From a virus (lineage: Duplodnaviria > Caudoviricetes): a DNA stretch of 64,000 bases. The notes beneath the pieces were generated by a model, which saw only the letters and a list, made by a program, of their open reading frames with translations, was not told the origin of the DNA and ran no database searches. Of this stretch, positions 2,474-48,859 are shown piece after piece; within the stretch, counting starts at the first letter, position 1, and the number at the start of each line of letters is the position of its first letter. The DNA lies in the IMG/VR virus record IMGVR_UViG_3300025098_005131; one strand, 5' to 3'. The translations under genes and the position numbers were made by a program.

Positions 2474-2686
2474 TTAACCCTTTAATAAAGTTTTTGTTGT
2501 GGTTTCTTGTAGGTTTTCGTTTCTACTTTGATTAATAATATTTGTTTTAATAATTCTTTTCTCGTTTGTTAACACATTTTTAGCATAAAAAAGATCACCA
2601 ACACTTATAGCAACCTCGTTCTCTGAGATTACATTTTGTGATCTTAAACTCTGTAACATTTCAGGCTGTAGCACTACCTCTGACAT
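2474..2686 (-). CDS. Hypothetical protein (70 aa)
   Basis: ORF packed between exonuclease and groEL. Confidence 0.7.
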   Translation of the reverse strand: MSEVVLQPEMLQSLRSQNVISENEVAISVGDLFYAKNVLTNEKRIIKTNIINQSRNENLQETTTKTLLKG

Positions 2687-3536
2687 ATCTTTCTCCTTTT
2701 AATAATTTTTCAAACGTCTCTTTAAATTTATTCCATGACTTTTCTTTTTCAACTATAGACTTAAATCCCATAAAAGAAAATTCAGACTTAATTTGTTCCC
2801 AGTTAATTTGACCTTCACTGAGTATTTTATTATAATATTTTATTTCGTTAATATCGTCATTAAGATCATGAAACTTTATCATTGTATTGTTTCTTAAAAA
2901 CTTTTGATTGTTTTCTTCAATCGACAAAAAGTCTTCTAACTTTTCTTTATTCTCTAGCAGCTTAATTGCTTTCTTATTACCAATCCCAGAAAAGCCAATT
3001 ATATTGTCTGACTTATCACCAACTAAAGACTTCCACATTATATAGTTATAATTTGGACTTTGGAAATAATCTTTCTTTACAGGATTAAAGACTCTTGTCT
3101 TTTCGTTTATACTTTGAATAAAATCAGTGTCTGTAGATATTATTATTGCATTGTCGTCTGCATGTTTTTCGTTGGCAAGGAAATTTGCAATATCATCACA
3201 TTCATAGTCATCATGCTTAACAACAACAATAGGTAAAAGATTCTTAGTTATCTCAATAATCTTTCTTCTTTGCTCTTGAAAGTTGTCCTTGTTGTGATAA
3301 GTTCTTTGGCCTTTATAGTTTGAATCAATAGCTAATCGCTTTACAGGTCGACCTTCTAAAACAAAATAGCATAAGTCTGGATTAAACTTTTCTATAATAG
3401 ATCTAAGACTTCTAAAAAAATTAAATACAGTAGTAAACTCTCCTGTGTTTCTTCCACTATACCTTGCTCTATAAATTAAATTATATCCATCTAAAACAAG
3501 AATATTATTATTGCTTTTCTGATTCATTGTTGTCAT
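2661..3536 (-). CDS. 5'-3' exonuclease / flap endonuclease (PolA N-terminal / T4 RNase H family), copy 1
   Basis: LVLDGYNLIYRA, YKGQR, YECDDIA, ISTDTDFIQ, LVGDKSDNIIGFSGIGNKKA (H3TH); true start may be ATG 3527. Confidence 0.93.
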   Translation of the reverse strand: MTTMNQKSNNNILVLDGYNLIYRARYSGRNTGEFTTVFNFFRSLRSIIEKFNPDLCYFVLEGRPVKRLAIDSNYKGQRTYHNKDNFQEQRRKIIEITKNLLPIVVVKHDDYECDDIANFLANEKHADDNAIIISTDTDFIQSINEKTRVFNPVKKDYFQSPNYNYIMWKSLVGDKSDNIIGFSGIGNKKAIKLLENKEKLEDFLSIEENNQKFLRNNTMIKFHDLNDDINEIKYYNKILSEGQINWEQIKSEFSFMGFKSIVEKEKSWNKFKETFEKLLKGERYVRGSATA

Positions 3537-13642: not shown

Positions 13643-14371
13643 CTATAGGATTTTCGAAATCTTTTCAGCTTTTTGAATTCTCTCTTCTATGATATCCCAA
13701 TTAAGTTCTTTCATCATAGCGAAAACATATGCTTTACGATCTTTTAAATAATCCCTGTAATAACTATGCTCCCAACAGTCCATTACCACTATAGGAATGC
13801 AATTAATTAAAACAGAGTCACTATGTAAATCAACTACAGTATTAATATATTTCTTCAAGTTCATGTTGTAAACTGTCATAGCCCAGCCGTTTCTAGCAGA
13901 AAGGCAGCATGCGACAAAGTCTTCTTGCCAAGCATCAAATGTCCCGAAATCTTTTGATAACTTCATGTAAGATAAAGAGTCCATAGAAATATTACTGTTT
14001 AAGTCGCTAATATTTTGAAAATATAATCCATGCAAAAAAGCTGCATTGTGATTGTAAGTTTCGTCTATTTTAAGACTTCTAAATTGAGAATTATTTAAGT
14101 TTGCTTTTGACTTATCTACGCCATCAAGTCTTGCTGATATGTCGTTTAACTCTTTTACATAACCATCTAGCAACTCTTGATGTGCTTTTTTAGTCTTTTG
14201 GGACAACAGTTCAGTTCGCAAATCAAACTTTCCACTTTGCGTCACATATGCTTCAGATATCATTTGACTTTTTTCGTTGCTTCTCTTATTAGTAACAGGC
14301 TCGGTTTTAAGATTGTTTTCTCTTAAAGTTTTTTCAACTGCTTCTTTTACTAATTCATTTAAATCTTTCAT
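13643..14371 (-). CDS. sod: Fe/Mn superoxide dismutase with ~40-aa N-terminal leader
   Basis: KKAHQELL, HNAAFLHGLYF, FGTFDAW, NGWA, MDCWEHSYY (DxWEHxYY) ligand motifs. Confidence 0.92.
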   Translation of the reverse strand: MKDLNELVKEAVEKTLRENNLKTEPVTNKRSNEKSQMISEAYVTQSGKFDLRTELLSQKTKKAHQELLDGYVKELNDISARLDGVDKSKANLNNSQFRSLKIDETYNHNAAFLHGLYFQNISDLNSNISMDSLSYMKLSKDFGTFDAWQEDFVACCLSARNGWAMTVYNMNLKKYINTVVDLHSDSVLINCIPIVVMDCWEHSYYRDYLKDRKAYVFAMMKELNWDIIEERIQKAEKISKIL

Positions 14372-19551: not shown

Positions 19552-19971
19552 TTAGTCTAAATATGACCTTACTTTTAAATTTGCTTCTTTAAGAATATTT
19601 ACTCCACCTAGATCTCTATAAGGTTTTAAGTAAATGACTTCTTCTATTTTGCTATTTACTATAGCTTTCGCACAATATTCACACGGGCTAAGAGTTAAAT
19701 ACATTTTTTTTGTCTTCGGGTTGTTGTAGTCCAATTTTAACAGTGCGTTAATTTCAGCATGCAGCAAACCACTACAACCAGGTTCTTCAGATTGAGGTGC
19801 GTTTGACATACCAGCAGCATTACCATTATACCCTAAAGAAAGCACTTGTGTATTATCTGACGTCACTATAAGTGCCCCTACCTTAAATGTGGAATGATGG
19901 CTTCGTTGTGCTATTGTTTCTGCCATTTGCATCCAAATTTTATCCCAAGATGGCCTATTTATATTTACCAT
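19552..19971 (-). CDS. dCMP deaminase
   Basis: KVGALIV, LGYNG, HAEINAL, SPCEYCAKAI. Confidence 0.93.
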   Translation of the reverse strand: MVNINRPSWDKIWMQMAETIAQRSHHSTFKVGALIVTSDNTQVLSLGYNGNAAGMSNAPQSEEPGCSGLLHAEINALLKLDYNNPKTKKMYLTLSPCEYCAKAIVNSKIEEVIYLKPYRDLGGVNILKEANLKVRSYLD

Positions 19972-19990
19972 TAAATTGCTCCGAGGTAAA

Positions 19991-20566
19991 ATGTCTATTT
20001 TATTATTAGAAGATTATATAAAAAATATTTTAAAAGAAAACAAAGAATTTATTAAAACTATAAATGTTTTTGACTTTGATATGACTTTGTTTAAATCGCT
20101 AACAGCACCTAATCGTTGGAATACAAAAGAGTCAGGATTTTGGTGGAATTCAGAGGAATCTTTAAATCAAGCATATCATAAGGACAACTTAAACAGTTTG
20201 TGGATAGAAAACACAGTTAATTCTGTAAAGCTGTCTATGAGTGATCCAGCATCACTAACAGTATTATGCACAGCAAGAAGCAAGACACCAGAAATTATGT
20301 ATGTTACAAATAATTTACTTCGATTAAAAGTTTTGCTTTTTGACGACAATTGTCTTTTCTATAAACCTTTAGGCATAAAAATGTCAACTGCACAGTATAA
20401 AACTGACGTCATAGTCAGACTTCTCAACGCTTATAGTTATGCAAACGAAGTTAATTTCTGGGAAGACAATATAGAAAACCTACAGCATGCTAAAAGTTTT
20501 ATTGATCAAAACAATAAACATAATAGCAGAAAAATTCAATTTAATTCACATGTTGTAATTGCTTAG
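19991..20566 (+). CDS. HAD-superfamily phosphatase (Swiss-army-knife RNA-repair-like HAD) with virion-type leader
   Basis: VFDFDMTLF (DxD), CTAR, YKTDVI, FWEDNIENL; ATG 19991 has SD GAGGT (ORF track starts at 19976). Confidence 0.8.
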   Translation: MSILLLEDYIKNILKENKEFIKTINVFDFDMTLFKSLTAPNRWNTKESGFWWNSEESLNQAYHKDNLNSLWIENTVNSVKLSMSDPASLTVLCTARSKTPEIMYVTNNLLRLKVLLFDDNCLFYKPLGIKMSTAQYKTDVIVRLLNAYSYANEVNFWEDNIENLQHAKSFIDQNNKHNSRKIQFNSHVVIA

Positions 20567-21427
20567 TTCTTTCTTCCAAGATGCTATTTTCTTTTCTAGT
20601 TTAAGACTTTTGTTTTCTTTTGATGCTTCCTTTAAAGTTATTCTATTCCAAGGAAATATTTTTCCTGTATTTGATCCAGAAGAAATTGTATCAATACCTT
20701 TTACAGAATATAAGTAGACTTTACTGTCCTTAATTTCTGTGCCTCTTTTAAAATAAAGACACTTTGGCGGTCGACCTAAACTAGACATTTCTTCGTCTTT
20801 TATTAATAACTCACTGCTACTCCACGGTATTGCAAACTTAATTGCGTCTTCTTTGTACGGTGTAACATAAGAATATTTATTTAAGCTATCAAATCTTTTA
20901 CTACTGCCATGATAAAATATTCTTTTTCTAGTCTCAGGTATGTAACAGTCTGGTTTTACTTTAAAAGGAACAAAGACCTGTATGTCTTTTTTAGATCTGC
21001 CTTCTATATTAAGATCTTTAATTTCTGTATGCCAAAGCTTATAGACATCAGCGAAACCTTGTATTCCTTTAGAAAATACTTGCTCGCCGTTTACATTAAT
21101 TAAAAACAAGCACTTTTCTATTTCGCTAGGCAGCATTTTAAAATAGTAAGTGTATTCATCTCGCTGAAGTATCTGGTCTGGTCTTGATGTGTTAGTTGCA
21201 TTAAACAACGAAGCCCTTAAAAAAGAAGTATCTCTCCCGTGATCAGGAAAATATTTTCTTAATTCATTCTCTGCCTCTTTTAGTCTTTCTCCTCCAGGTA
21301 TTTTTGAATACCTTTGCGGTCGTAAGACTCTCTTGTATTTTTTATCATGCAAAGTAAACCAAATATCAGAAGTTAAAAACTTTGTGCCTAAATCTTTTAT
21401 TTCAAAAGGAACATTTATCTTTTTCAA
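20546..21427 (-). CDS. Putative ADP-ribosyltransferase-fold protein (C-terminal HG-S/T type domain)
   Basis: IFYHGS, YSYVTPYKEDAIKFA, VYLYSV pattern of H-Y-type ART folds. Confidence 0.45.
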   Translation of the reverse strand: MKKINVPFEIKDLGTKFLTSDIWFTLHDKKYKRVLRPQRYSKIPGGERLKEAENELRKYFPDHGRDTSFLRASLFNATNTSRPDQILQRDEYTYYFKMLPSEIEKCLFLINVNGEQVFSKGIQGFADVYKLWHTEIKDLNIEGRSKKDIQVFVPFKVKPDCYIPETRKRIFYHGSSKRFDSLNKYSYVTPYKEDAIKFAIPWSSSELLIKDEEMSSLGRPPKCLYFKRGTEIKDSKVYLYSVKGIDTISSGSNTGKIFPWNRITLKEASKENKSLKLEKKIASWKKELSNYNM

Positions 21428-21429
21428 TT

Positions 21430-21996
21430 TTATTTCTCTTTAAATGTAGTGTAATGTTTTGAACATCTTGGCTCATACATTCCAAACGAACCAACACGCT
21501 CTTCAGCAGTTGCATTATTTATATCGAACATTGCCTCAGTAAAGTAAGCATCTTGATCGCACATGGTGCAAACAGCCGGACAAATTTCAATTTTTGTTGC
21601 CCAAGGCATCATGTTTTTTATATTTTGAAAAGGTATTTCGTTTGCGTCTAATTGAATTGATGACACAATTATATTAACACCTTTACGATACAAAGAAATC
21701 AAAACAGAGTCAATATCCTGAATCATAAAAGCTTCATCAACCGCTACTATTGTATTTGAATTATGCATATCTTCATTTACATAACGCAATATTTCTTCTG
21801 CATGATTTATACAGAATGCTGGGTAAGTTGCACCGGTATGGGTGCTAATCGTTTCTTTTGTATAACGCTTATCTTTATTTGCTTTAAAAGCTACAACTTG
21901 ACGACCTTTATATAAGGCTCTATCAATATCAGACATTAGTCTTGTTGTTTTTGATCCAAACATTGGGCCAGTATAAATTATAAATTGTGGGTTCAT
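21430..21996 (-). CDS. tdk: Thymidine kinase (type II)
   Basis: YTGPMFGSKTT P-loop, VAVDEAF, CTMC...RCSKH zinc site. Confidence 0.95.
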   Translation of the reverse strand: MNPQFIIYTGPMFGSKTTRLMSDIDRALYKGRQVVAFKANKDKRYTKETISTHTGATYPAFCINHAEEILRYVNEDMHNSNTIVAVDEAFMIQDIDSVLISLYRKGVNIIVSSIQLDANEIPFQNIKNMMPWATKIEICPAVCTMCDQDAYFTEAMFDINNATAEERVGSFGMYEPRCSKHYTTFKEK

Positions 21997-22005
21997 GAAA
22001 TTTCT

Positions 22006-22896
22006 CTAAGGTATTATGTGTGCCGATCGAATACTAACTGTAAGATTTATAGCACAATCTTCAGGTAAAGACATTTCTTTGGCGGTTTTAACGCTAAGTA
22101 TCTTAAGAAATTCATAGTCAGCCCATAAAGTTTTTGATACGTTTGAAGACCTTAGAGTAGCCGATACATTTAATTTATTTTGACGCCACAAAACATGAAT
22201 TATTGAAATGCAACTATCATCAGTGTATACAAATCTCCTACTATCATGTTTTTGGGCTTGATTATACTCGTTTAGACCTGTAAACTCTCTAAATATTTTA
22301 TTGAAAAACTCAAACTCAATTTTTTCATAGTACTCTTTTTCTTGAGGAAAGTCTAGCACAGTTAAATCCAATTGGTTTTTATCAACTACTTCTTTACATT
22401 GAACATCAACAAGCTCGTTTCTTCCGCTGTTAAGCACTAAAGACTTTATTAATTCTTGCCCTGGCATTTCGTTTAAAGAATTAATGAACTGTAGTAATTT
22501 GTTAATGTTTCTATCTAAGTCATCTTCTTCAAGAACTAAAACATTAGGATAAGAACCAAAACCCATTTTAGCAATATTTCTAAAATAGCTTCTTACTTTT
22601 AAAATACTGTCCTTATCTTGAAACTCGTCACCTCTTTTTTCCAGTCTGTCAAGAATAGTTGATTCAGAAGGTAGAAGTAATATGTAAAGTGTGTCTAGTC
22701 GTTTAAGATCGTCTAAAATTTTATCAAACCAAAGTGATGCATCTTCTCTTTCATACATCTTTGCATAAACAAACATAGACATACAACTTCTGTCTTGAAT
22801 ATTATACTTAAAGTTAGTTTTTTTATGAAGTTGATTGTATAGTGTAGTTTTACCACTACAATCAGGACCTTCAATATTAATATTAAAAAATCGCAT
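22006..22896 (-). CDS. Fusion: dNMP (thymidylate-like) kinase + truncated thymidylate synthase/dCMP hydroxymethylase-fold domain
   Basis: N-term NIEGPDCSGKTT and IQDRS; C-term SRR, catalytic Cys exactly 20 residues before RS, RSSNVSKTLWAD, SAH. Confidence 0.85.
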   Translation of the reverse strand: MRFFNINIEGPDCSGKTTLYNQLHKKTNFKYNIQDRSCMSMFVYAKMYEREDASLWFDKILDDLKRLDTLYILLLPSESTILDRLEKRGDEFQDKDSILKVRSYFRNIAKMGFGSYPNVLVLEEDDLDRNINKLLQFINSLNEMPGQELIKSLVLNSGRNELVDVQCKEVVDKNQLDLTVLDFPQEKEYYEKIEFEFFNKIFREFTGLNEYNQAQKHDSRRFVYTDDSCISIIHVLWRQNKLNVSATLRSSNVSKTLWADYEFLKILSVKTAKEMSLPEDCAINLTVSIRSAHIIP

Positions 22897-23419: not shown

Positions 23420-26400
23420 TTAATCAAAAGCATTAATCTTTTTAAGTTTAGCAAGTGTAGATGACATACCCCAACCTGCATCGTTCTTTACATCAGCAAG
23501 CCATGTACTAAACTCAACACCATCTTCAACACTACCCCAAACCCTTAACCAGCCACTACGATTGTCTGAGTCAACGCATTTCCAACGCATAAACGCTTTA
23601 CCGTTTTTTGTTGTTTTATGAATAACTTCTGTAACAGTAAACCAGCCAATTCCTCTTTCACCTTGAGGTATATCAAATACACTCTTGATTTGCTTGTCGT
23701 TTAACTTTTTAATTAGACTAGGTGGAAACAGGAGGTCGTCACTTGCATCGTTGCTGAGATCAAAATAATTCCTAATTTTTTCTGATCTATTCCAGTCAGA
23801 CACAACACGATACTTTGTCAATAAATCTTCAACAATTGGAACAATTTCTTCTTCGTTCTTTTTTGCTCTTTTTACTGCAGTTTTTGTCATTCCCCAATAA
23901 CCTTTCTTGAGTGTAGTATAGTTATCAAGTATTAAATCATGGAGTTGCTTGTGATTATCCAGTTCATCGTTTTTAAACTCGTCAAGAGACTTAAATGCTT
24001 CCATCTTCGCTAGCGATGAAAAAGCTGTTTTGTTTAACTTGGAATGTTTCCATACTCCTTCTGCATCGTAAAATAGAGTATTTAAATTTTTGTATGGTCT
24101 ATTCGCAAATACTTCTTCAACAGCTTTATCTCCTACTCCTTTAAGCGATGTTAGCGGAGGAACAAAAGCTTTTAATACGTCTGAATATTCCCATTCTGCT
24201 TCAGAGTGGTTTATATCTATTGCTGCAATTTCGTATCCAAATGATTTAATCTCTGATATGGCTTTTGACATGCCTTTGGGGTTACCATTTTCAGACTGTA
24301 ATATTGCAGCCAACCACTCAGTCTCGTGATGTGTATGCAGCCAAGCCGCGTAATATGAACCAATAGCATAAGCAACTGCGTGAGACTTGTTAAAGCCATA
24401 AACAGCAAAATTTTCTATATCTGCCCATAACTTAGAAGATACCGACTCCGGGACATCGTTTAATTCTTTAGCACCTTTAATAAACTTTTCTCTAGCAATT
24501 GCTTTTTCTGAGCCTTTAGAATGCAGTGTATCTAGTGACTTCTTAACCAGCGTCTTTCTAAGCTTATCAGCCTCACCTGGATCAAATCCACTTAACTCTT
24601 GTGCAAGTAACATAAACTGCTCTTGAAAAACTACGTAGTTAAACGTAGGCCCTAATATCTTTTCAATAATAGGGTGATCATACTTAATGTCAGATGCATT
24701 TCTTTTTGCTTTAACATACTTCTTATGAACATTTGCTTTAAGCGGACCAGGTCTGTATATAGCTGTTAAGGCTGCAAGTTCTTCAATAGAATCAGGTTCT
24801 GCCTCTTTGGCAAAGTTTCTAGCACCAGGAGCTGTAAATTGGAATATGCCACAAAACTTTCCGTCTTTATATACATGTTCCCAAACTTTAGGGTCATCTT
24901 GTTTGACAAACCTACAGTTTAAATGTTTATCAAAGAATGCTCTTGCATCTGTAAATGTAGGATTATTATTTCCTTGCTTCTTGAGAATTCTATAAATGCA
25001 GTTTTCTACGTCTTTAAGCAATGTCAATCCTAAGAAGTCAAACTTAAGAAAGCCGTTATCTTCAAGATTTCTAAAGTTCATACCTTCTGTCCAAGGAGTT
25101 TGTAGTTCGCCGCGAACACCAACAATCGGCATTGACTCAGCAAGAGAATCAGCATCAGCTATTATTACACCACCTGCGTGTCTACCAATAGCTCTATTTT
25201 GCATAAACAACGTTTCAACATGCTCGGCAACTTCCGGATAGGTTGTCATAAATTCATTATACTCAGGAGAGTATTTCATACAGTCTTCATGCTTAAGGAC
25301 GAATACAGATTTTTCTTGATTTTTATCCATCGCTTTTTGCATAACTTGATCTTGAAGAGGACCAGTTACTTTGTTTACTTCATCAAAAGGAATATCATAA
25401 AACTTTGCAATATCTTTAATAAGCGATTTAAGCTTAAGTGTATTAAAGTTTGATACTGGAATAACTGCATCGTCGCCGTATAATTCTTTTGCTGCATTAA
25501 TAAGTTCATCTCTGTCGCCAGCGTCTGTATCAATGTCAGGCCACGAAACTCTGTGTCTTCCTAAAAATCTACTCCAAAGTAAGTTATAAGGAATAGGATC
25601 AAGTTGAGTAATACCTAGCAAGTAATTAACTAAAGAACCTCCGCCTGAGCCACGGGCCGGTCCAAATAGAGTCTTTGTTTCAGCTTTTTTAAAGATCTCA
25701 TACATTGTAATGAAGTAAGCTTCGTGCCCAAGATACTTAATGTCAGACAGCTCATATTTAGCTCTATCTACATATTCTTTGTTTGTATGCAAACCTTCAC
25801 TAATCAAAGCATTCTTGACTAAGTCTGATAGATGTTTAAACGGCGTCTTATCAGGTACTGATATTGTTGGAAGCTTTGCGCTTACATCTATCCATGTATC
25901 TTCGAAATCATTCCAAACAATGTCATGTGTTCTTTCTATCGACTCTTTAACTAGCTGCTCGTTTCCTTTATAGAAATCGTGTTCTTTATATCCTTCTAAG
26001 AATTCATCCCACATTTGTTGCGCATTCTTAGGATATAGCTCACATTTAAGATCTTCAAAAGCAGGCAGTGTCATGCCATCCTTCTTACCTAACCATCCAA
26101 GCTTCTTATATAATTCTCTCGCTTGCCACTTATCATTACTTGGGTAGTGAGAATCTGCTGTTGAGATAAGAGGAATACCCGTCAACTTATGATGTTCTAT
26201 GAGGTAATCATTAACAACATGTTGTTTATTAAGCTTGTTGAATTGTAGTTCTAATTTAAAGTTTTCAATACCAACAGCATCTGTAAACCTGTCTGATAGA
26301 CTTAAAAGATCTTTTTGGATTTCGTCGCGTGACTTATCATGAGCTACGCCTCGAAGTATTCTATTGCTAAAAATGCCGCCTAAACATGCAGTATTAACAT

Positions 26401-26995
26401 GCAAACCTTCACCGTGTTCTTTAAGCATTTTAAAGTCAATACGTGGGTATCGATAGAAACCATCCTTATACGACTTCTTTACAAGGGTAAACAGATTATT
26501 AAGACCTTTTCTATTTCTTGCTGTAACAACTAAGTGATATCGACGTTTCCATTCATCCTTAAGAATATCAATCTTCTTGGACTCATCTTCATCCTCGATT
26601 ACAAGACCACCACTTTCATCATCAGCGTCAATAACAATTTTTTCTTTGCTTTTTCTTTCAGCAGCAGCAGCAGTTTTTGCATCTTTAATTGCTTGCCTGT
26701 GTGATGCATAGTCATCTGTCCATTGATCTAACGAAGGAACAAAATAAAATTCTACACCATAAATCTGTCTAAACTTTCGACCTGCTTTTTGCATTTTAAC
26801 TGCATATGAATGTGCATGTGCAAGACCGTTACCGTTACCGTGGTCTGTTAGCGCCCAAGCATCCATGCCTTGTGATTCAGAAAGAACAAAGTCTATATGA
26901 TCTGATGGGTATCCTAGTCCATCGAAAGTGCTGAACGTTGAGTGTGAATGAAGAGAAACAAATCTGTCTGGTGGTGTTATTAAATCAATAGACAA
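23420..26995 (-). CDS. dnaE: DNA polymerase III alpha subunit (family C)
   Basis: PHP FVSLHSHSTFS...ALTDHG, PARGSGGGSL, PDIDTD, KFDFLGL, GFNKSHAVAY, C-terminal OB; TTG start with SD AAAGGT; no intein. Confidence 0.97.
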   Translation of the reverse strand: MSIDLITPPDRFVSLHSHSTFSTFDGLGYPSDHIDFVLSESQGMDAWALTDHGNGNGLAHAHSYAVKMQKAGRKFRQIYGVEFYFVPSLDQWTDDYASHRQAIKDAKTAAAAERKSKEKIVIDADDESGGLVIEDEDESKKIDILKDEWKRRYHLVVTARNRKGLNNLFTLVKKSYKDGFYRYPRIDFKMLKEHGEGLHVNTACLGGIFSNRILRGVAHDKSRDEIQKDLLSLSDRFTDAVGIENFKLELQFNKLNKQHVVNDYLIEHHKLTGIPLISTADSHYPSNDKWQARELYKKLGWLGKKDGMTLPAFEDLKCELYPKNAQQMWDEFLEGYKEHDFYKGNEQLVKESIERTHDIVWNDFEDTWIDVSAKLPTISVPDKTPFKHLSDLVKNALISEGLHTNKEYVDRAKYELSDIKYLGHEAYFITMYEIFKKAETKTLFGPARGSGGGSLVNYLLGITQLDPIPYNLLWSRFLGRHRVSWPDIDTDAGDRDELINAAKELYGDDAVIPVSNFNTLKLKSLIKDIAKFYDIPFDEVNKVTGPLQDQVMQKAMDKNQEKSVFVLKHEDCMKYSPEYNEFMTTYPEVAEHVETLFMQNRAIGRHAGGVIIADADSLAESMPIVGVRGELQTPWTEGMNFRNLEDNGFLKFDFLGLTLLKDVENCIYRILKKQGNNNPTFTDARAFFDKHLNCRFVKQDDPKVWEHVYKDGKFCGIFQFTAPGARNFAKEAEPDSIEELAALTAIYRPGPLKANVHKKYVKAKRNASDIKYDHPIIEKILGPTFNYVVFQEQFMLLAQELSGFDPGEADKLRKTLVKKSLDTLHSKGSEKAIAREKFIKGAKELNDVPESVSSKLWADIENFAVYGFNKSHAVAYAIGSYYAAWLHTHHETEWLAAILQSENGNPKGMSKAISEIKSFGYEIAAIDINHSEAEWEYSDVLKAFVPPLTSLKGVGDKAVEEVFANRPYKNLNTLFYDAEGVWKHSKLNKTAFSSLAKMEAFKSLDEFKNDELDNHKQLHDLILDNYTTLKKGYWGMTKTAVKRAKKNEEEIVPIVEDLLTKYRVVSDWNRSEKIRNYFDLSNDASDDLLFPPSLIKKLNDKQIKSVFDIPQGERGIGWFTVTEVIHKTTKNGKAFMRWKCVDSDNRSGWLRVWGSVEDGVEFSTWLADVKNDAGWGMSSTLAKLKKINAFD

Positions 26996-35544: not shown

Positions 35545-36531
35545 CTACTTAGGAAAGAATTGTTTTAGATCGATATCTTGCTCTTTAGCTTGATCTAAAT
35601 ATTTTAAAGGATTATAAAAGTAGATATTTGAATCTTTAATTGATTGCCAAGATTGTCGAATGCCTTCCTTTAAATCTCTTGTCCTACTAAAGCCCAAGGT
35701 ATCTACAAGTTTTTTATTGCTTAACCTATGATTTCCAAGATAATCAGTTTGTGGGTGCCATTGTATTACAGGCTTTAAATTAAGACCAGTTACTTCTTCT
35801 ATTAATTCTACAATTTCCAAAGTATTATGTGGGTTTTCTGCTGTAATATTGAAATCGTCGTTTAATATATTGTTTGTAATTAAGTCCATTATACTACTAC
35901 AAAAGTCCTCAACATGCATATAGTCTTTTATTTTTTCTGGATTTAAAAACATATCTAAACTATTTATTTTGTTTTTTAAACAGAACAAAGACTTAGATAT
36001 AAGAGAGTTCATGTCACCTTCTCCGCCGTAAGCAAATAGCGGTCTCACGACGAGCCAGCTTTTAGCGTTATTTTTAACTGTCATTTCACCTGCATATTTT
36101 TGAATTGCATAGTTTGTCCTAGGTAATATTTTGCTATCTTCAAAAATATCAGATTCTTGATATTGATATGTATCATAAATAACTGTCGTTCCAATATATA
36201 CGATCGTTGTGTTTGTATTATTAGCAGCTTCAGTTAGAACATGTGTGCCTAATATGTTTGTATTAATTGCTCGCTCAGGGTTTAATGCAACTACATCTGT
36301 ACCTACTAGGGCTGCATTGTGAACAATAACGTCAAGCTCTAAGTCTGAAAGTAGTTGTGACCACTCTTCAATAGAATTTCTATATACACAAACTTCTCCT
36401 ACTCCTGTACGAATATAATCTTGTGAATAAATACTTTTATCTAACGATACAAAAGTATGATTATAATTTTCTATTTGATTAGCCAAGTTAGTTGCAATAA
36501 AACCTTTTTCACCAGTGATGCCTATTCTCAT
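35545..36531 (-). CDS. NAD-dependent NDP-sugar epimerase/dehydratase (extended SDR)
   Basis: ITGEKGFIA, VHNAA, YAIQK (YxxxK), RPLFAYG, HVEDF. Confidence 0.92.
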   Translation of the reverse strand: MRIGITGEKGFIATNLANQIENYNHTFVSLDKSIYSQDYIRTGVGEVCVYRNSIEEWSQLLSDLELDVIVHNAALVGTDVVALNPERAINTNILGTHVLTEAANNTNTTIVYIGTTVIYDTYQYQESDIFEDSKILPRTNYAIQKYAGEMTVKNNAKSWLVVRPLFAYGGEGDMNSLISKSLFCLKNKINSLDMFLNPEKIKDYMHVEDFCSSIMDLITNNILNDDFNITAENPHNTLEIVELIEEVTGLNLKPVIQWHPQTDYLGNHRLSNKKLVDTLGFSRTRDLKEGIRQSWQSIKDSNIYFYNPLKYLDQAKEQDIDLKQFFPK

Positions 36532-37296: not shown

Positions 37297-37450
37297 CAGT
37301 TATCTTATTGCCTATTACATAAATCATTGCAGAAAAATTTAGATCTTTTTTAATCTTATAGACTATCCCTAACTTTTCTTCTTCGTTCGAGTAAAGAAAA
37401 TTATATCTAATTAGGTCGCCTATTTTCAGGTCGTGTATATAATCTATCAT
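37244..37450 (-). CDS. Small SH3/KOW-like hypothetical protein
   Basis: LKIGDLIRY ... LGIVYKI pattern. Confidence 0.7.
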   Translation of the reverse strand: MIDYIHDLKIGDLIRYNFLYSNEEEKLGIVYKIKKDLNFSAMIYVIGNKITDVVPYSIMEYKVLDRKN

Positions 37451-38265
37451 TGAAAATCTCTTTTTTTAGCTCCGATCGTTTGTCTTTCTCTAACCCAGTG
37501 TGTTGTCCTTTTATCGAGCGTCGTTTCTTTAATTACATTATGACCATTACAGTCTTTGTTTCTTCCATAAACAACAAAACCTTGAACAGCATTCCCATTA
37601 TTACCATCAAAAGTATAGTAACTTTGAATTGTTGCTCCTTGTTCATTATATGACTTGTTAATTACAAATCTTATCGCTTTATAAAGAGTTATCAGGTTTT
37701 TGTCTGTTAAATCTTTTATTAAAGAATGTGGATTTATACGTGAATACCATAAAGATTCTGCCTTGATATAATTACCAACTCCAGAAATAACCTTTTGATT
37801 CATCAATACATCACATATATTTTTGTTGTTTTTTTGTCTTAAAAATTTAATAAAATCAGATGAAGAAGGGGGATTAGACAACATGTCAGGCCCAATAGAT
37901 TTAAGCTTTTTTGCCAAATCTTTTTGATTTTTAATCTGAACTGTTCCAAAATTTCTAATATCATTGAAATACAATGTATCGTCCTCATAAAAGTTAATCT
38001 CTATTCTAGAATGATCTGTTTTTTTTCTAGACCAGTTTCCTGTCATTCCTAAAGTATTGAAAATAATTATGTCTTCTAAATCAAGCCATATAAACTTGCC
38101 TTTACAATTAAAGCTTTTAATTTCTTTGTCTAATAATGTTTCTAGGTTTGGAATTGGTTTTTTAATATATCTTCCGCTCAATATATTAACTGACTTTATT
38201 TGATAATGTCTAAAATTTTGATTTAGTTTATCAACAAACAATTTAACTTCAGGTCCTTCTGGAAT
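37447..38265 (-). CDS. fpg: Fpg/Nei DNA glycosylase-AP lyase, zincless-finger type, ATT start
   Basis: Extending 8 codons upstream of the track start gives (ATT)-PEGPEVKLF; KGKF, LGMTG, NDIRNFG, LMNQKVISGVGNYIKAESL (H2TH). Confidence 0.93.
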   Translation of the reverse strand: MPEGPEVKLFVDKLNQNFRHYQIKSVNILSGRYIKKPIPNLETLLDKEIKSFNCKGKFIWLDLEDIIIFNTLGMTGNWSRKKTDHSRIEINFYEDDTLYFNDIRNFGTVQIKNQKDLAKKLKSIGPDMLSNPPSSSDFIKFLRQKNNKNICDVLMNQKVISGVGNYIKAESLWYSRINPHSLIKDLTDKNLITLYKAIRFVINKSYNEQGATIQSYYTFDGNNGNAVQGFVVYGRNKDCNGHNVIKETTLDKRTTHWVRERQTIGAKKRDFQ

Positions 38266-38518: not shown

Positions 38519-38968
38519 TTATTCAATTGCATCTGCATAAGGTTCATTTGGTAAGATACCTGTTTCAATAATTCTATCAAGATAGTCTTCTAATTGTTCA
38601 AATGTTGTGCAGACCTTAATACCACTTCTCGCGAGCATTAAATTAAATTTTGCGCCTTTAGGAAGTCCGGCACAGAAATAGATTATAGGCTTATTAAATG
38701 CAAAAGCGTATCCTGCTTCCCAAATTGTACCAATATCTTTATCTCTAGTATTTACTAGTAAAAAGTCTGCTGTCTGTATATGATGAAGATTGCCACTAAA
38801 TGTTTCATCTTGCACGCTTTTTGGCGCATTAGGCGGGCAAACAAAAATTCTTCGAGGAGAAGCTAGTTCAAAGTGGTTAACTCGATCATCAAAAATCTTT
38901 TCCAGATGTGTAAGTTCTGCGTCTTGAATAGGATTAAACCAACCGCTTGCTAAATAAATCTTTTTCAT
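38519..38968 (-). CDS. Nucleoside 2-deoxyribosyltransferase / dNMP N-glycosidase family
   Basis: KIYLASGWF, ADFLL, DIGTIWEAGYAFAFNKPII. Confidence 0.9.
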   Translation of the reverse strand: MKKIYLASGWFNPIQDAELTHLEKIFDDRVNHFELASPRRIFVCPPNAPKSVQDETFSGNLHHIQTADFLLVNTRDKDIGTIWEAGYAFAFNKPIIYFCAGLPKGAKFNLMLARSGIKVCTTFEQLEDYLDRIIETGILPNEPYADAIE

Positions 38969-39021: not shown

Positions 39022-39993
39022 TTAAAATTCATTATCTAGCTGCTGTCTAATTAAACTTACAGCTGCTACGTCATCGTTCCACATCCTTGTAAAGATTTTT
39101 TCTTCACCAGATTTGTTGCCATTAATCTCTTCACGACGACATGCATAAATTGAATCTTTTTCATTAAATTCAAATAAATCGTTCTTTGGTTCTGGCTGAT
39201 AAAGATTTGTGCCTCGTGAAGTAAAGGAACCATCGGGTAATTCAACTCTAAAAGTGCGAACATAATGCATGTCAGGTTTTTCAAAGTTTAAGCATGTAGA
39301 AACTTCTGGAATTGATTCGCAAACAATTTTTGCAATACGCGTTGCAATAATATTGTCTACTTCTGGTTGAATTTGCACATCTTGACGCTGTCTAATAAAA
39401 CCAATTAAATCTTTAAGATTAAATCGAGCAACGTAAAAAGTCTCAAGTGCCTTAGGCAAAATAACTCGTGCATCCATTAAAGACACAACTCGAGAATCAA
39501 CCATATCAGAATAAAGTTGTTTTGCTGCAGAAGCAACTTCAATAAATCGATGATGAAAGTCTGAATTTTCAACAGACTCAGGAACTAAAATGTTGTCATT
39601 CCTAAGATCACGATCACCGGTGCACTGCGCTGCAAATGAACCTGCTCTATGTCTAATTAAATGCGTCACTGTTTGTGTATCAATTCCGCTAATTTTAAAA
39701 GTAAAACCTAAACATTCCATAGGTGTAGGTAATGCTCTAAAATTAAGAACATCTTGTAAGTTAATTGAAGCTTCTTCTGGTAAAGCATTTTCAAATGAAG
39801 TCTCAGAAGGTGTGTCAGCCCAGGTTGCTTTGGTCATGTGCCAAGCAATTTTTTGAGCTTGTTCTCTAGTGGGCCCATCAATCAACTCAATGTTAAGTGA
39901 TTCTAAGTTATTAATGTAATTAGTATTAGGAACTTGATCAAATTTAAGCTCCATAGGAAGTGTGACTTGTTTAAGATCATTATTAATTGGCAA
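39022..39993 (-). CDS. Divergent ThyX-like flavoprotein (second copy, altered active site)
   Basis: FTFKISGI ... HLIRHRAGSFAAQCTGDR, DARVILP, NLKDLIGFIRQR; TTG start with SD AAGGAG. Confidence 0.85.
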   Translation of the reverse strand: MPINNDLKQVTLPMELKFDQVPNTNYINNLESLNIELIDGPTREQAQKIAWHMTKATWADTPSETSFENALPEEASINLQDVLNFRALPTPMECLGFTFKISGIDTQTVTHLIRHRAGSFAAQCTGDRDLRNDNILVPESVENSDFHHRFIEVASAAKQLYSDMVDSRVVSLMDARVILPKALETFYVARFNLKDLIGFIRQRQDVQIQPEVDNIIATRIAKIVCESIPEVSTCLNFEKPDMHYVRTFRVELPDGSFTSRGTNLYQPEPKNDLFEFNEKDSIYACRREEINGNKSGEEKIFTRMWNDDVAAVSLIRQQLDNEF

Positions 39994-40716: not shown

Positions 40717-41091
40717 TTAATACCCTTTTGTTAACCTTTCTTTAATTATCTCGTCTTTCTTTTTAAATGCATTGTAAAATTCGTCAACATCTACACCTAT
40801 TAAAATAATAAGAGAATAAAAGTAATTAAAAGCATCAACAATTTCTTCTAAAAACTCTTCTCTATTTATTTCTGGCACTTCTGTTTCTCTATGCGGCTTC
40901 CAGTTTTTTAAATGACCTAGTGCTTCAAACATTTCTTCTACACCTTTAAGAGCTGTTTCACGCAGTAAAGCTTGACTACTTTTACTTGAAATATTTACTG
41001 GCCAAGACGGATATGAATCTTTATATTTTTCTTTAATTAAGTGCATAAAGACTTCTCTTTTTTCAAAGATTTCGTCTAATCTATCTTGCAT
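40717..41091 (-). CDS. All-alpha dNTP pyrophosphatase (dimeric dUTPase/dCTPase/MazG superfamily)
   Basis: VEEMFEAL ... WKPHR ... EEFLEEIVDAFNY acidic motifs. Confidence 0.88.
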   Translation of the reverse strand: MQDRLDEIFEKREVFMHLIKEKYKDSYPSWPVNISSKSSQALLRETALKGVEEMFEALGHLKNWKPHRETEVPEINREEFLEEIVDAFNYFYSLIILIGVDVDEFYNAFKKKDEIIKERLTKGY

Positions 41092-41705: not shown

Positions 41706-42410
41706 CTATTTATTATTGAGAATATAACTTTCTACTGTGACTGGCCAAAGTTCCTGAATAATCTCAAGCATTTTACTAGCCAATGCTTGAATTTCTAGCT
41801 GTGATCCTTCATGAGTTCTAAGCTTAATAAATTTTAAAATATTATTTAGATTAGCAGTCGCATAATATTCTGTATATAGATTTTGAGGAAGAATCATTCT
41901 TGCTTGCTCACGAGCAATACCTTTTTTAATCATATCATAATATAATTTAACAGAATTTTGTACGTGATAATCTACAGCTTCATTACATAGCCTACTTTCA
42001 AGTAAAATCGGATAAGAATCCATTTGTGGATTAATTTGGTTATCTATGTTAGATGCTTGTCTATTAGACTTATGCTGCGTCCTATAAGATTTTGGAATAT
42101 AAAATTCCATGTTTACATCTGTATATCGACGTGATATTTCATTATAAGACCATGTCCTATGTCTATGGTGTTGTGATCTAACAAATAAAGGAACTTTTAT
42201 TCTAAATGTAGCAATGTTATGTTCTAAAGTAGAAGTATGTTGATGATCAATTAAATAATTGATCAGCTTTTTGTCTTTACTATCTAAAGTTTCTTTCTGG
42301 ACTCCAAAAGAAACACGAGCAGAATTAACAACAGTAATATCGTTACCCATATGTTGTACTAGCTCTATTTTTCCAATATTGTCTTTATAAAGATAATGTG
42401 TATTTGTCAT
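41706..42410 (-). CDS. thyX: FAD-dependent thymidylate synthase
   Basis: NSARVSF, HTSTLEH, RHRTWSYNEISRRY canonical motif, EQARMILP. Confidence 0.96.
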   Translation of the reverse strand: MTNTHYLYKDNIGKIELVQHMGNDITVVNSARVSFGVQKETLDSKDKKLINYLIDHQHTSTLEHNIATFRIKVPLFVRSQHHRHRTWSYNEISRRYTDVNMEFYIPKSYRTQHKSNRQASNIDNQINPQMDSYPILLESRLCNEAVDYHVQNSVKLYYDMIKKGIAREQARMILPQNLYTEYYATANLNNILKFIKLRTHEGSQLEIQALASKMLEIIQELWPVTVESYILNNK

Positions 42411-47482: not shown

Positions 47483-48859
47483 TTAACCATCTTTTTGATT
47501 TACCTCTTTCCACTTTTCTCTTAATTTTTCTTTCATTGTGTTATTGTCTTGAGCGACTGCTTCATTCAATGACATTTCAGTATCATCAAGAATTTCAAAT
47601 TTTGATTTAGCTGTGTCTATGTTTATTGGAAATAACAATCCATCTCTTCCAGCACGATTCTTAGCTACAAATATTCGACCTCCGCCTGTAGACTTTTCCA
47701 TTGGCTTACGACTTATCGATAAAACTACGTCTGCAACTTGTGCCTTGCCATAAGACTCACCTAGATTTTCTAAGCCTACAACGTCAGACTTTGAAGAATC
47801 TTTGTTCGCTTGTGAAGCAGTCCAAATAGGTATTTGCAATTCCACAGCAAGATTTCTTAATTCTGTATAAATTAACTTTAACTCGTGCCTTAAAGAATCG
47901 TATGCTTTAGAAGACTTCATTACGTCAGCATAGTCAACAGTCACCAAACTAGGTTTAAAACCTTTCAGTGTAAGCTTTTCAATATGATTTCTTAATGTCA
48001 TAACTGAAGCTGAACCTGTTGGGTACTCTTTTATAATAAGCTTTCCTAGCTCCATTTTTTTGTATTTGTTAACTACTTCAAGTTTTCTTTCAATAATCTC
48101 GTTACTTGGTATATCACAAAGATTTGAATCATACCGCTTGCCTGTGTCATGTTCTGATAGTTCGAATGTATAGTGTATTACATTTTTGCCAGCTCTCATA
48201 GCTGCACAGCCCATTGCAACTAAGAAGTGTGATTTACCTACGCCTGTGTTTGCTGCAATGACGCCTAGTTCACCTCTGCCTAAACCGCCTCTTAATATGT
48301 CTTGCGAGTCAATCTTGTCTAAACCAGTCGGACAAACTTGCCTGTTTATTTGAACAAATCTTGCTTCAATGTCATCAAAGAAATTATGACCTGCTGTGTT
48401 AGGCATACCAACAGAAATAGCTTCTTTCATAATTTTTAAGACTGATTCATACTTTTCTGTTTGAATTAGTTCAACACTTTGTTCTAATGCATCTCTAAAT
48501 GCTTGACGTTTGCAGAATTCAAGAGACTTATCTTTAACATATTGCAAATCGCCAATATCTGGGTTAGTTTTCATTCTATGAAGATATTCTATAATCTGAT
48601 CTCTCAATACATGATCTTTTGATTTTGATAAATCTTCTTTAATGATTGTGATAAGAATTGTTAGCGTTGGAAATGTCTTGTATTTATTATAATAAGAATA
48701 GTATCTTTCGCAAAGAAAAGAAAGATACTTTAAATCAAAATAGTCGTGACTCATTACCTCAATCATTTGAGCTGACCAGTTTATATCTGTAAGCATGCTT
48801 TGGAAGACTTTTTCCTGAAATGGCTTGCCAAACTTAGAAAAGTTTTTGTTTTGACTCAT
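47483..48859 (-). CDS. dnaB: Replicative helicase (DnaB / T4 gp41 family)
   Basis: RGELGVIAANTGVGKS, FELSE, VDYADVM, WTASQAN, KNRAG. Confidence 0.93.
   Translation of the reverse strand: MSQNKNFSKFGKPFQEKVFQSMLTDINWSAQMIEVMSHDYFDLKYLSFLCERYYSYYNKYKTFPTLTILITIIKEDLSKSKDHVLRDQIIEYLHRMKTNPDIGDLQYVKDKSLEFCKRQAFRDALEQSVELIQTEKYESVLKIMKEAISVGMPNTAGHNFFDDIEARFVQINRQVCPTGLDKIDSQDILRGGLGRGELGVIAANTGVGKSHFLVAMGCAAMRAGKNVIHYTFELSEHDTGKRYDSNLCDIPSNEIIERKLEVVNKYKKMELGKLIIKEYPTGSASVMTLRNHIEKLTLKGFKPSLVTVDYADVMKSSKAYDSLRHELKLIYTELRNLAVELQIPIWTASQANKDSSKSDVVGLENLGESYGKAQVADVVLSISRKPMEKSTGGGRIFVAKNRAGRDGLLFPINIDTAKSKFEILDDTEMSLNEAVAQDNNTMKEKLREKWKEVNQKDG

Follow-up and report, generated by a model that had tools for sequence, protein, structure and literature searches.

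Introduction

The phage proteins RB69 gp48, DLP3 gp80, and others are flavin-dependent synthases of 5-hydroxy-deoxycytidine monophosphate (5-hydroxy-dCMP) (Lee et al., NAR 2026, PMC13326640), for which an Asn at the position of Asp169 in the thymidylate synthase (TS) ThyA (D169N) has been proposed as diagnostic (PMC13326640). In DLP3, RB69, and RL38JI, a "nucleotide kinase" resembling YorR or thymidylate kinase (TMPK) is encoded two to three genes from the synthase (PMC13326640, Table 1). An Asp at position 177 marks the use of dCMP (PMC8670742, PMC13326640); in the MetaGPA study, positions 177 and 147 best separated the TS homologs of cytosine-modified contigs, which carry Asp177, from those of unmodified contigs, and the co-occurrence of a TS homolog with PF01503 (PRA-PH/MazG) and a dCMP deaminase was specific to cytosine-modified contigs (PMC8670742). 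Here, we describe a gene in which a YorR-like kinase is fused to a strongly reduced TS-fold domain (mini-TS). It lies in a stretch of 64,000 nucleotides of the Caudoviricetes record IMGVR_UViG_3300025098_005131, called the window below, to which all window coordinates refer. According to the list of open reading frames and its translation, the gene (22006-22896, minus strand) starts with ATG, encodes a protein of 296 residues (P0001), and ends with a stop codon at 22006-22008.

The fusion is genuine and widespread, and it joins to a kinase a variant of the TS superfamily that has so far gone unstudied. We slightly favor the view that it is a bifunctional phage enzyme of pyrimidine deoxynucleotide metabolism, which makes or processes a C5-modified dCMP that is then phosphorylated by the kinase. 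That the TS-fold half is a Cys-dependent enzyme acting on a cytosine mononucleotide and coupled to the kinase appears likely; that the C5 modification is made de novo in this phage has a little less than an even chance, and 5-hydroxy-dCMP as the specific product seems unlikely.

A thymidylate synthase fold reduced to its core

Residues 145 to 296 (22009-22464, minus strand, as for all segments of the gene given below) form a minimal TS-fold domain according to AlphaFold2, Foldseek, VIA-align, hhalign, and a predicted homodimer. A deep alignment of 103 diverged domains, 20 to 63% identical to the query, served as the basis of the AlphaFold2 model, the hhalign comparisons, the conservation counts, and the tree. 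The resulting model, which comprises the domain only, reached a predicted local distance difference test (pLDDT) value of 97.2 and a predicted template modeling score (pTM) of 0.91; an earlier full-length model from a shallow alignment (pLDDT, 76) was excluded from domain-domain geometry. Foldseek returned 265 matches in the PDB at E ≤ 1e-3, and all of the 50 listed were TS-fold enzymes, led by the dCMP hydroxylase AfhB of phage HY126 (9iqu, E = 1.8e-6; 9iqc, E = 3.7e-6). VIA-align, by which 136 to 142 of the 156 model residues were aligned to TS-fold enzymes, gave the same Z score of 12.3 for MilA (5b6e; root mean square deviation [rmsd] of 3.0 Å over 141 residues) and AfhB (9iqu; 2.7 Å over 136 residues) and Z scores of 10.8 to 11.7 for ThyA enzymes, with model residues 4 to 156 spanning residues 1 to 210 of E. 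coli ThyA. Using hhalign, domain residues 5 to 156 were matched to residues 13 to 210 of E. coli ThyA in a seven-sequence TS alignment (97.3%, E = 2e-11, 139 columns), and among single sequences the best match was T4 gp42 (95.7%, E = 1e-8), followed by RB69 gp48 (93.9%, E = 1.6e-7) and E. coli ThyA (86.6%, E = 4.5e-6). The agreement of hhalign, AlphaFold2, Foldseek, and VIA-align upholds a first-pass annotation, made from the sequence of the window, which had placed a TS-fold domain in the C-terminal half and had named T4 gp42 as the enzyme to overlay; in the hhalign comparison, the catalytic residues of the two proteins are in register.

The evidence from single sequences was weak, so that the link to TS required the deep alignment. 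P0001 gave no match to PF00303 of Pfam even at E ≤ 1, and distant family members reached 13.9 bits against a cut-off of 24.3. With the PHROG TS family, P0001 scored E = 0.034 and distant members E = 5e-8 to 1e-6 (P0270, 5e-8). A sequence search of the PDB, with the single protein and with a profile of close relatives, yielded YorR and a nonsignificant match to gp42 and nothing else. On the strength of the structural model and the profile comparisons, the assignment of the C-terminal domain to the TS fold is secure.

The model contains, in this order, helix A, strand i, a short helix, one helix of 20 residues, the strands of the TS core together with helix J, and the last core strand. Compared with E. 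coli ThyA, approximately 55 to 70 residues are absent between strand i and the DSRR loop, including the Trp80/Trp83 region. The 11-residue loop before the catalytic Cys is deleted, leaving 8 residues between SRR and Cys versus 19 in E. coli; Asp260 and His293 lie 33 residues apart versus 30; and the protein stops at the equivalent of ThyA residue 210, with no counterpart of residues 211 to 264. The first-pass annotation had called the alignment with the ThyA core gapless, which holds from Cys229 to Asp260 but not elsewhere, given the deletion before the Cys and the differing Asp260-to-His293 distance. It had further described both the N- and C-terminal TS parts as missing; the C-terminal part is indeed absent, whereas helix A and strand i are present at residues ~145 to 170, and what is lost is an internal block. 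Of the elements that bind methylenetetrahydrofolate (CH2-THF), neither the Trp80/Trp83 region nor Asp169 nor the C-terminal ~54 residues closing the site was found, and the proposed loss of most of the folate-binding scaffold of ThyA is borne out by both VIA-align and hhalign.

Conservation of the active site and predicted dimer

The residues named in the first-pass annotation are all in place when checked codon by codon, i.e., Ser219-Arg220-Arg221, Cys229, Arg249-Ser250 (20 residues after the Cys), Asn252, Asp260, His293, Ile295, and the end of the protein at Pro296. Ser219-Arg220-Arg221 (22234-22242), which hhalign aligns to the DSRR of ThyA, T4 gp42, and RB69 gp48, corresponds to Ser125-Arg126-Arg127 of ThyA, the phosphate clamp given to the partner subunit; R220 is found in 100 and R221 in 86 of the 103 relatives. 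Cys229 (22210-22212; 99/103) aligns to the catalytic Cys and is the equivalent of the nucleophiles Cys146 of ThyA and Cys148 of T4 gp42. Arg249-Ser250-Ser251-Asn252 (22141-22152) corresponds to Arg166-Ser167-Cys168-Asp169 of ThyA, with R249 kept in 100 and S250 in 101 sequences. Asp260 (22117-22119), 11 residues downstream of Arg249 (the spacing of ThyA and gp42), occupies the position of pyrimidine specificity (ThyA Asn177, T4 gp42 Asp179), where Asp denotes cytosine; all but one of the 103 diverged relatives carry it, in line with the earlier claim. His293-Ile-Ile-Pro296 (22009-22020) matches His207-x-Tyr209 of ThyA and ends the protein; H293 is conserved in 98/103, and its SAH motif is shared with RB69 gp48 (SAHV). 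Ile is found at the ThyA Tyr209 position (Ile295) and also at the ThyA His147 position. Poor conservation in homologs, which the first-pass annotation had considered damaging to its proposal, was not seen: the active-site residues are kept in 86 to 102 of 103 sequences, and both halves of the protein are under purifying selection, with ratios of nonsynonymous to synonymous substitution rates (omega) of 0.058 and 0.096 against a relative with unsaturated synonymous divergence.

Besides these residues, the family has an acid/Tyr motif of its own, E186-K-E-Y189-Y190 (22327-22341), which opens the long helix (E186, 98/103; Y189, 82/103; Y190, 95/103). To judge from the alignments, E186, Y189, and Y190 are candidates for a general acid/base and possible counterparts of Tyr94 and/or Glu58 of ThyA. 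The program hhalign sets Y189 opposite Tyr94, albeit in a half of the alignment that has low confidence, and the stretch E204-x-x-G-x-N was likened by eye to ThyA helix B around Glu58 (E204, 81/103).

The prediction of a homodimer gave an ipSAE value of 0.74, compared with 0.00 for the best control; among proteins of solved structure, 20 of 30 pairs of one chain and 1 of 23 single chains attained this mark; three runs agreed in 100% of the contacts, and pLDDT values were 89 or higher. In the dimer model, Arg220 and Arg221 of one copy touch Arg249, Ser250, Ser291, and His293 of the other, and a contact across the interface joins Glu161 and Arg238. R238 is conserved in 97/103 sequences; an Arg follows the Cys strand in T4 gp42 as well. 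The predicted assembly is that of a TS-like homodimer with a shared phosphate clamp. Fold, profile, and conservation show that the C-terminal domain keeps a clamp for a pyrimidine 5′-monophosphate (Arg249/Ser250/His293 plus Arg220/Arg221 of the partner), the cytosine-type Asp260, and Cys229, the walls of the folate pocket being lost.

A domain with these features might also serve the kinase without being an enzyme, as a dimerizing, nucleotide-binding module providing quaternary structure, selectivity, or allosteric control by dCMP or modified dCMP. The loss of the cofactor site, the location of the conserved E161 and R238 at the predicted dimer interface, and the very small size of the kinase (~140 residues) are compatible with such a role. 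Yet 99 of 103 sequences, at 20 to 60% identity, retain the Cys together with the activating Arg, whereas loss of the nucleophile is usual in pseudoenzymes; a 5′-phosphate held by the clamp would be buried away from the kinase site; and there are standalone copies without an adjacent recognizable kinase, as in the P0270 context. We regard a nonenzymatic role as quite improbable.

A YorR-like kinase forms the N-terminal half

Residues 1 to 140 (22477-22896) constitute a P-loop nucleotide kinase domain of the YorR/TMPK-like kind, matching phrog_761 ("thymidylate kinase") with E = 4.6e-18. The Walker A motif or P-loop GPDCSGKTT (residues 10 to 18; 22843-22869; codons checked) is invariant in 23 relatives. 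The same is true of D35, R36, and S37 in the acceptor-binding DRS motif of TMPK- and deoxynucleoside kinase (dNK)-type enzymes (22786-22794), which aligns with IIDRF of YorR, and of R84, R88, G89, and D90 in the LID-like segment RLEKRGDE (residues 84 to 91; 22624-22647), which aligns with RLRVRGDE of YorR. The sole match to a PDB sequence was YorR of the Bacillus phage SPbeta (2axp/3kb2, E = 0.002), and Foldseek gave a template modeling (TM) score of 0.60 by target for the same protein. All curated cut-offs were missed (AAA_18, 29.1 versus 29.4 bits; dNK, 24 versus 27; Thymidylate_kin, 20.6 versus 27; TIGR00041, 27.3 versus 83). Judged by its Walker A motif, DRS, Arg-rich LID, and fold, this half is a P-loop kinase, predicted to act on (deoxy)nucleoside monophosphates [(d)NMPs].

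YorR (2axp, 3kb2) and the kinase half have in common a P-loop of the form (E)GPDxxGK(T/S)T, DR(S/F), and a LID of the form RLxxRGDE. DLP3 gp78, the "nucleotide kinase" of a 5-hydroxycytosine cluster, likewise has YorR as its best PDB match, and the hhalign match between RB69 gp45 and the fusion protein is confined to the P-loop. YorR, DLP3 gp78, RB69 gp45, and RL38JI gp214 are standalone kinases of ~170 to 180 residues, whereas the kinase described here is fused and comprises ~140 residues.

Comparison with described TS-fold enzymes

With T4 gp42 (1b5d, 1b49, 6a9a), the mini-TS shares the Cys, Arg-Ser, and specificity Asp in register (C + 20, R + 11), as well as a phage replication module that includes a dCMP deaminase and a dCTPase-like gene. 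The two systems would also have a logic in common, as gp42 works with the separate deoxynucleoside monophosphate (dNMP) kinase gp1 of T4 and the product of the mini-TS would likewise be passed to a dNMP kinase. In contrast to the mini-TS, gp42 has 246 residues, binds CH2-THF, carries Asp at position 169, and is not fused to a kinase, and the kinase of the present protein is YorR-like rather than gp1-like. A dCMP hydroxymethylase of the T4 type combines Asp177 and Asp169 with a CH2-THF site; in our protein, the second of these positions is Asn252, and there is no folate scaffold. MilA (5b6e, 5jnh), a cytosine-type TS-fold enzyme and one of the two top VIA-align matches, differs in being a folate-dependent CMP 5-hydroxymethylase of 316 to 319 residues that acts on CMP in the mildiomycin pathway of Streptomyces.

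The ThyA enzymes of E. coli and L. casei (PF00303) share the fold, the predicted dimer architecture, and the positions of Cys, Arg, Ser, and His, but have Asn177 and His147 (here Asp and Ile) and possess the 55 to 70 internal residues and the segment 211 to 264. A divergent thymidylate synthase that converts dUMP to dTMP and is fused to a thymidylate kinase would have a precedent of sorts in viral fusions listed as a cluster in the ESM Atlas (~437 residues, PF00303 plus PF02223), which likewise join a kinase and a TS fold in one tailed-phage protein but contain a complete PF00303 domain; PHROG and JGI moreover label relatives of our protein "thymidylate kinase." We nevertheless consider this possibility extremely improbable in view of the specificity position, which is Asp instead of Asn in 102/103 sequences, of the missing folate site and PF00303 match, and of the canonical ThyX (169 bits) that the phage already has.

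The resemblance to the 5-hydroxy-dCMP synthases (AfhB, 9iqu/9iqc; RB69 gp48; DLP3 gp80) comprises the TS fold, Cys, Arg-Ser, SRR, Asp177, the Asn169 found here, and SAH(I/V). These enzymes do not use folate and have a YorR/TMPK-like kinase gene nearby. The fusion looks like a one-protein version of the same arrangement. As a compact 5-hydroxy-dCMP synthase, the mini-TS would activate C5 of dCMP via Cys229 for attack on the C4a-hydroperoxide of a flavin that is either loosely bound or provided in trans; the kinase would phosphorylate the 5-hydroxy-dCMP, and the hydroxyl group would later serve as a handle for a sugar. Both signature residues, Asp at 177 and Asn at 169, are present (PMC13326640), AfhB is the top Foldseek match and shares the top VIA-align score, all three characterized 5-hydroxycytosine clusters contain a YorR-like kinase, and a short-chain dehydrogenase/reductase (SDR) of the nucleoside diphosphate (NDP)-sugar type is encoded in the window and, in two distant relatives (L027, L028), directly beside the fusion. 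On the other hand, the mini-TS comprises ~150 residues compared with 217 to 238 in the synthases, i.e., it is ~70 to 90 residues smaller than AfhB and gp48, and lacks the cofactor-pocket segment and the C-terminal part; the 136 residues aligned to AfhB (9iqu) by VIA-align are spread over chain residues 17 to 227, well short of a near-full-size match. The hhalign scores show no preference for RB69 gp48 (E = 1.6e-7) over T4 gp42 (E = 1e-8), the window has no recognized glycosyltransferase and no arabinose/hexose transferase cluster near the fusion, and in one relative (L007) a full-length TS with the Asn169/Asp177 signature stands beside the mini-TS.

The variation at position 169 within the family tempers this assignment as well. 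The residue is strictly Asn in the true hydroxylases, whereas position 252 of the mini-TS family is N in 50, D in 40, E in 7, and H in 3 of the 103 relatives, Asn being found in P0001 and in the sequences closest to it. When the 103 domains were placed on a maximum-likelihood tree, the well-supported branches forced at least 13 to 15 Asn/Asp changes. Because of these repeated flips, sometimes to Glu or His, Asn252 cannot be used as a product signature in the mini-TS family; the Asn noted in the first-pass annotation is present but is not diagnostic here. The fusion cannot safely be assigned to the 5-hydroxy-dCMP synthases, and we give the compact-synthase explanation a low probability.

Distribution of the fusion and its gene neighborhoods

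The whole protein has 465 homologs at E ≤ 1e-3, the best 120 of which are 70 to 93% identical and nearly all 295 to 297 residues long, with the N terminus shared in the aligned subset. A profile of the C-terminal 156 residues, searched against 1.84 billion representatives, retrieved 166 clusters at E ≤ 1e-3 and 100 at E ≤ 1e-10. Of 150 cluster representatives, approximately 75 are fusions with a length of ~300 residues; the P-loop is canonical in 66 of these and has GKDT in several more. The remaining representatives are fragments or standalone domains of 165 to 230 residues. The ESM Atlas clusters of the family are 100% viral and consist entirely of "hypothetical proteins." A match in phage Tsamsa was rejected as a family member, being a standalone kinase of 177 residues. 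The BFVD entry A0A3G1L3Q7, a protein of 151 residues from the cultured cyanophage Synechococcus phage S-CBWM1, matched the mini-TS model over its full length (TM scores of 0.59/0.61; rmsd, 4.0 Å) and may represent a standalone mini-TS fold in a culturable system, to judge from the structural model; it was not detected by tblastn with P0001.

Two types of neighborhood were distinguished. In the first, to which the window belongs, the fusion follows the gene for the DNA polymerase III alpha subunit, as in P0128, P0213, and P0146 (L008, L027, and L028). In L027 and L028, it is followed by a thymidine kinase gene and adjoined by the NDP-sugar-type SDR (L027:2959-3978; L028:10967-11971), and in L027 a dCMP deaminase gene follows as well. 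L028, in which a flavin mononucleotide-type (IMPDH/NMO-like) oxidoreductase lies beside the SDR, is the 18.8-kb contig CACOOO010000003.1 of NCBI assembly GCA_902628895.1, which may be of viral origin and placed in the bin of a cell, or may point to the host.

The second type is a block found in three unrelated phages with differing DNA polymerase types (L003:6471-10074, L007:6173-11448, and L026:6077-10609). It encodes a full-length cytosine-type TS, a long ThyX, a Rossmann protein with a GGGxxG motif, an NT5C-type phosphatase of the haloacid dehalogenase (HAD) family, a small YorR-like kinase, and the mini-TS, and looks like an undescribed multistep pathway of pyrimidine nucleotides. L007 and L026 have these genes in collinear order; L003 has them rearranged, with the long ThyX ~5 kb downstream. 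No PDB sequence match and no family was found for the GGGxxG protein (298 to 331 residues in the three phages). In the window, BLAST and phmmer revealed no counterpart of the short TS of this block, of the GGGxxG protein, or of the NT5C-type HAD; the HAD protein encoded in the window (19976-20566) has no detectable sequence similarity to the NT5C-type HADs beside the kinase in L003, L007, and L026.

The kinase and the mini-TS are fused in L007, encoded by separate genes overlapping by 20 nucleotides in L026, and separated only by the HAD gene in L003, while in the P0270 context the mini-TS stands alone. Such gene fusion and fission is strong evidence that the two act on the same metabolite stream. 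As proposed in the first-pass annotation, the link to the kinase thus appears functional and not accidental, given that about half of the family has the two domains fused and other members have them as adjacent or overlapping genes. The role of the mini-TS as the first dCMP-modifying enzyme, which had also been proposed, is weakened by its coexistence with a full-length cytosine-type TS in L003, L007, and L026; since both occur in one block, the mini-TS is not simply a replacement for the full-length enzyme.

The mini-TS might accordingly catalyze a second step, in which 5-hydroxymethyl- or 5-hydroxy-dCMP is made by another enzyme (the full-length cytosine-type TS or, in the phage of the window, perhaps the long ThyX) and the Cys of the mini-TS adds again at C6, restoring an intermediate with an electrophilic or nucleophilic C5, so that the substituent can be exchanged, reduced, or removed before the kinase acts. 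C5-cytosine methyltransferases exchange groups on 5-hydroxymethylcytosine via the same C6 adduct. Chemistry of this kind would not need a cofactor pocket, and the block shared by the two proteins, collinear in L007 and L026 and also present in L003, agrees with it, as does the long ThyX in all of the contexts described below. Against this stands the window itself, where no full-length ThyA-type TS was found, nor was PF00303 in five partial genomes of the same lineage (29 to 46% complete, which leaves absence unproven), so that the first-step enzyme is hypothetical here; moreover, no second substrate or donor of a nucleophile can be identified. A second-step function therefore also ranks as an improbable alternative.

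A long ThyX paralog accompanies the mini-TS

All six of the mini-TS contexts with enough flanking sequence encode a long ThyX paralog of 322 to 343 residues. The five copies with DNA available (window, 39022-39993, minus strand; L003:13773-14741; L007:7478-8506; L026:6951-7982; L028:3324-4295) are mutually homologous (E = 1e-8 to 1e-107) and closer to each other than to canonical ThyX. In the copies of the window (323 residues) and L028, the motif is altered to RHRAGS(F/W)AAQCTGDR, compared with RHRTWSYNEISRRY in the canonical copy. Both ThyX types occur in four of five partial genomes of the window's lineage. When the association was approached in reverse, by a search starting from the long ThyX, the best 120 matches contained only close relatives of the same lineage.

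The mini-TS could conceivably be one half of a two-component enzyme, which would clamp the cytosine nucleotide and activate it via the Cys, while the flavin of the long ThyX, as N5-methylene or C4a-hydroperoxide, would give the reactive group. The sequence of the window's long ThyX would fit this idea in that the flavin motif RHR is kept and the nucleotide pocket appears rewired. We attribute a rather remote probability to this arrangement; if true, it would combine the mechanisms of ThyA and ThyX, with C5-modified dCMP being formed by a TS fold that has no folate pocket, and the fused kinase would direct the product toward DNA.

Genome context

The source, a marine jumbo phage that has not been cultured, was detected in sequencing runs of 17 studies; RNA signal was weak (≤10% of words, in oligo-dT libraries). 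The fusion gene sits in a region of low G+C content (~31%) devoted to replication and nucleotide metabolism. In the order of the minus strand, the genes are those for DNA polymerase III alpha (23420-26995), a small plus-strand gene, the fusion, thymidine kinase (21430-21996), a protein of 293 residues (20546-21427), a plus-strand HAD-family phosphatase (19976-20566; PF10307 HAD_SAK_1, E = 3e-19), and dCMP deaminase (19552-19971). The 293-residue protein, encoded on the minus strand in the same operon-like run as the fusion, had no match in Pfam, PHROG, or NCBIfam; the sole lead is a subthreshold Atlas feature match (0.89) to Arr-type NAD+ ADP-ribosyltransferases.

A second group of genes of interest lies further away. 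The SDR (35545-36531, minus strand), 13 kb from the fusion, is of the extended type of NDP-sugar epimerases/dehydratases and falls below every NCBIfam equivalog cut-off by far. The long ThyX gene neighbors those for a PF05014 protein (38519-38968, minus strand; the family of nucleoside 2-deoxyribosyltransferases/dNMP N-hydrolases to which MilB belongs) and an Fpg/Nei-like glycosylase (37447-38241, minus strand); the trio recurs in L028 (4654-5103, PF05014; 898-1701, glycosylase), which indicates a conserved grouping. A MazG/PRA-PH-like protein of 124 residues (40717-41091, minus strand; PF01503, E = 0.0055) is a candidate dCTP/dNTP pyrophosphatase and shows weak similarity to a dUTPase_2 protein of L003 (E = 4e-5). 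The canonical ThyX for dTMP that the first-pass annotation had mentioned was confirmed at 41706-42410. The window thus holds a TS homolog, PF01503, and dCMP deaminase together; the mini-TS has Ile at position 147. Ribonucleotide reductase and dUTPase genes are present as well; the combination of dCMP deaminase, PRA-PH/MazG-like, and dUTPase genes is a typical setting in phages that modify cytosine. The window additionally encodes a Cpn60/GroEL-type chaperonin (837-2468), an Fe/Mn superoxide dismutase-like protein (13643-14371), and two 5′-3′ exonuclease paralogs (2661-3536 and 48856-49827), all on the minus strand.

Discussion

In the function that we favor for the fusion, Cys229 would add to C6 of dCMP, or of a dCMP already substituted at C5, with Asp260 handling N3/N4 and Glu186/Tyr189/Tyr190 acting as acid/base. 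The activated C5 would then be substituted, or its substituent remodeled. As the domain has no built-in cofactor pocket, the reacting group would have to come from outside; its likeliest source would be a flavin-borne species, either reduced flavin in the free state together with O2, on the model of the 5-hydroxy-dCMP synthases, or the long ThyX. Upon elimination of the Cys, the product dNMP would be phosphorylated by the fused YorR-like kinase and pass via the dNTP pool of the phage into DNA, while the composition of the canonical pools would depend on the neighboring dCMP deaminase, HAD phosphatase, MazG-like pyrophosphatase, and dUTPase.

Several points weigh against this function. The presence of a full-length cytosine-type TS beside the mini-TS in L003, L007, and L026 means that the latter may be a second-step or accessory component. 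A donor for C5 has no obvious seat, since the domain lacks the region that holds folate in ThyA and gp42 and flavin in AfhB. The scans of the window recognized neither a glycosyl- nor a carbamoyltransferase, and a search with three family members as queries found no homolog among 50,697 cultured or deposited phage records. The aligned sequences leave the counterparts of Glu58 and Tyr94 of ThyA as low-confidence alternatives, E204 or E186 for the former and Y189/Y190 for the latter, and show that the Asn252 position is not fixed in the family. The predicted dimer, finally, may in part reflect a memory of solved TS dimers.

The finding made in 2025-26 that some TS-fold enzymes hydroxylate dCMP with the help of flavin indicates that the chemistry of this fold is not exhausted. 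The family described here is large and almost wholly uncultured (166 clusters at 50% identity, hundreds of marine sequences); it has kept the core of covalent catalysis, discarded the cofactor pocket, and attached a kinase. For predictions of function, the flips at position 252 imply that the D169N predictor (PMC13326640) should not be applied blindly beyond full-length TS homologs. The fusion is probably part of a cytosine modification pathway in abundant marine phages, and in the viruses that carry it, a modified cytosine nucleotide is probably made through so far undescribed chemistry. If active, the mini-TS would represent either a novel, minimal way of making modified cytosine or a novel type of enzyme that remodels nucleotides in a second step, and jumbo phages of an abundant ocean lineage would be marked out as carriers of noncanonical DNA, which matters for the evasion of host defense, for sequencing bias in metagenomics, and for enzymes with which modified DNA can be made.

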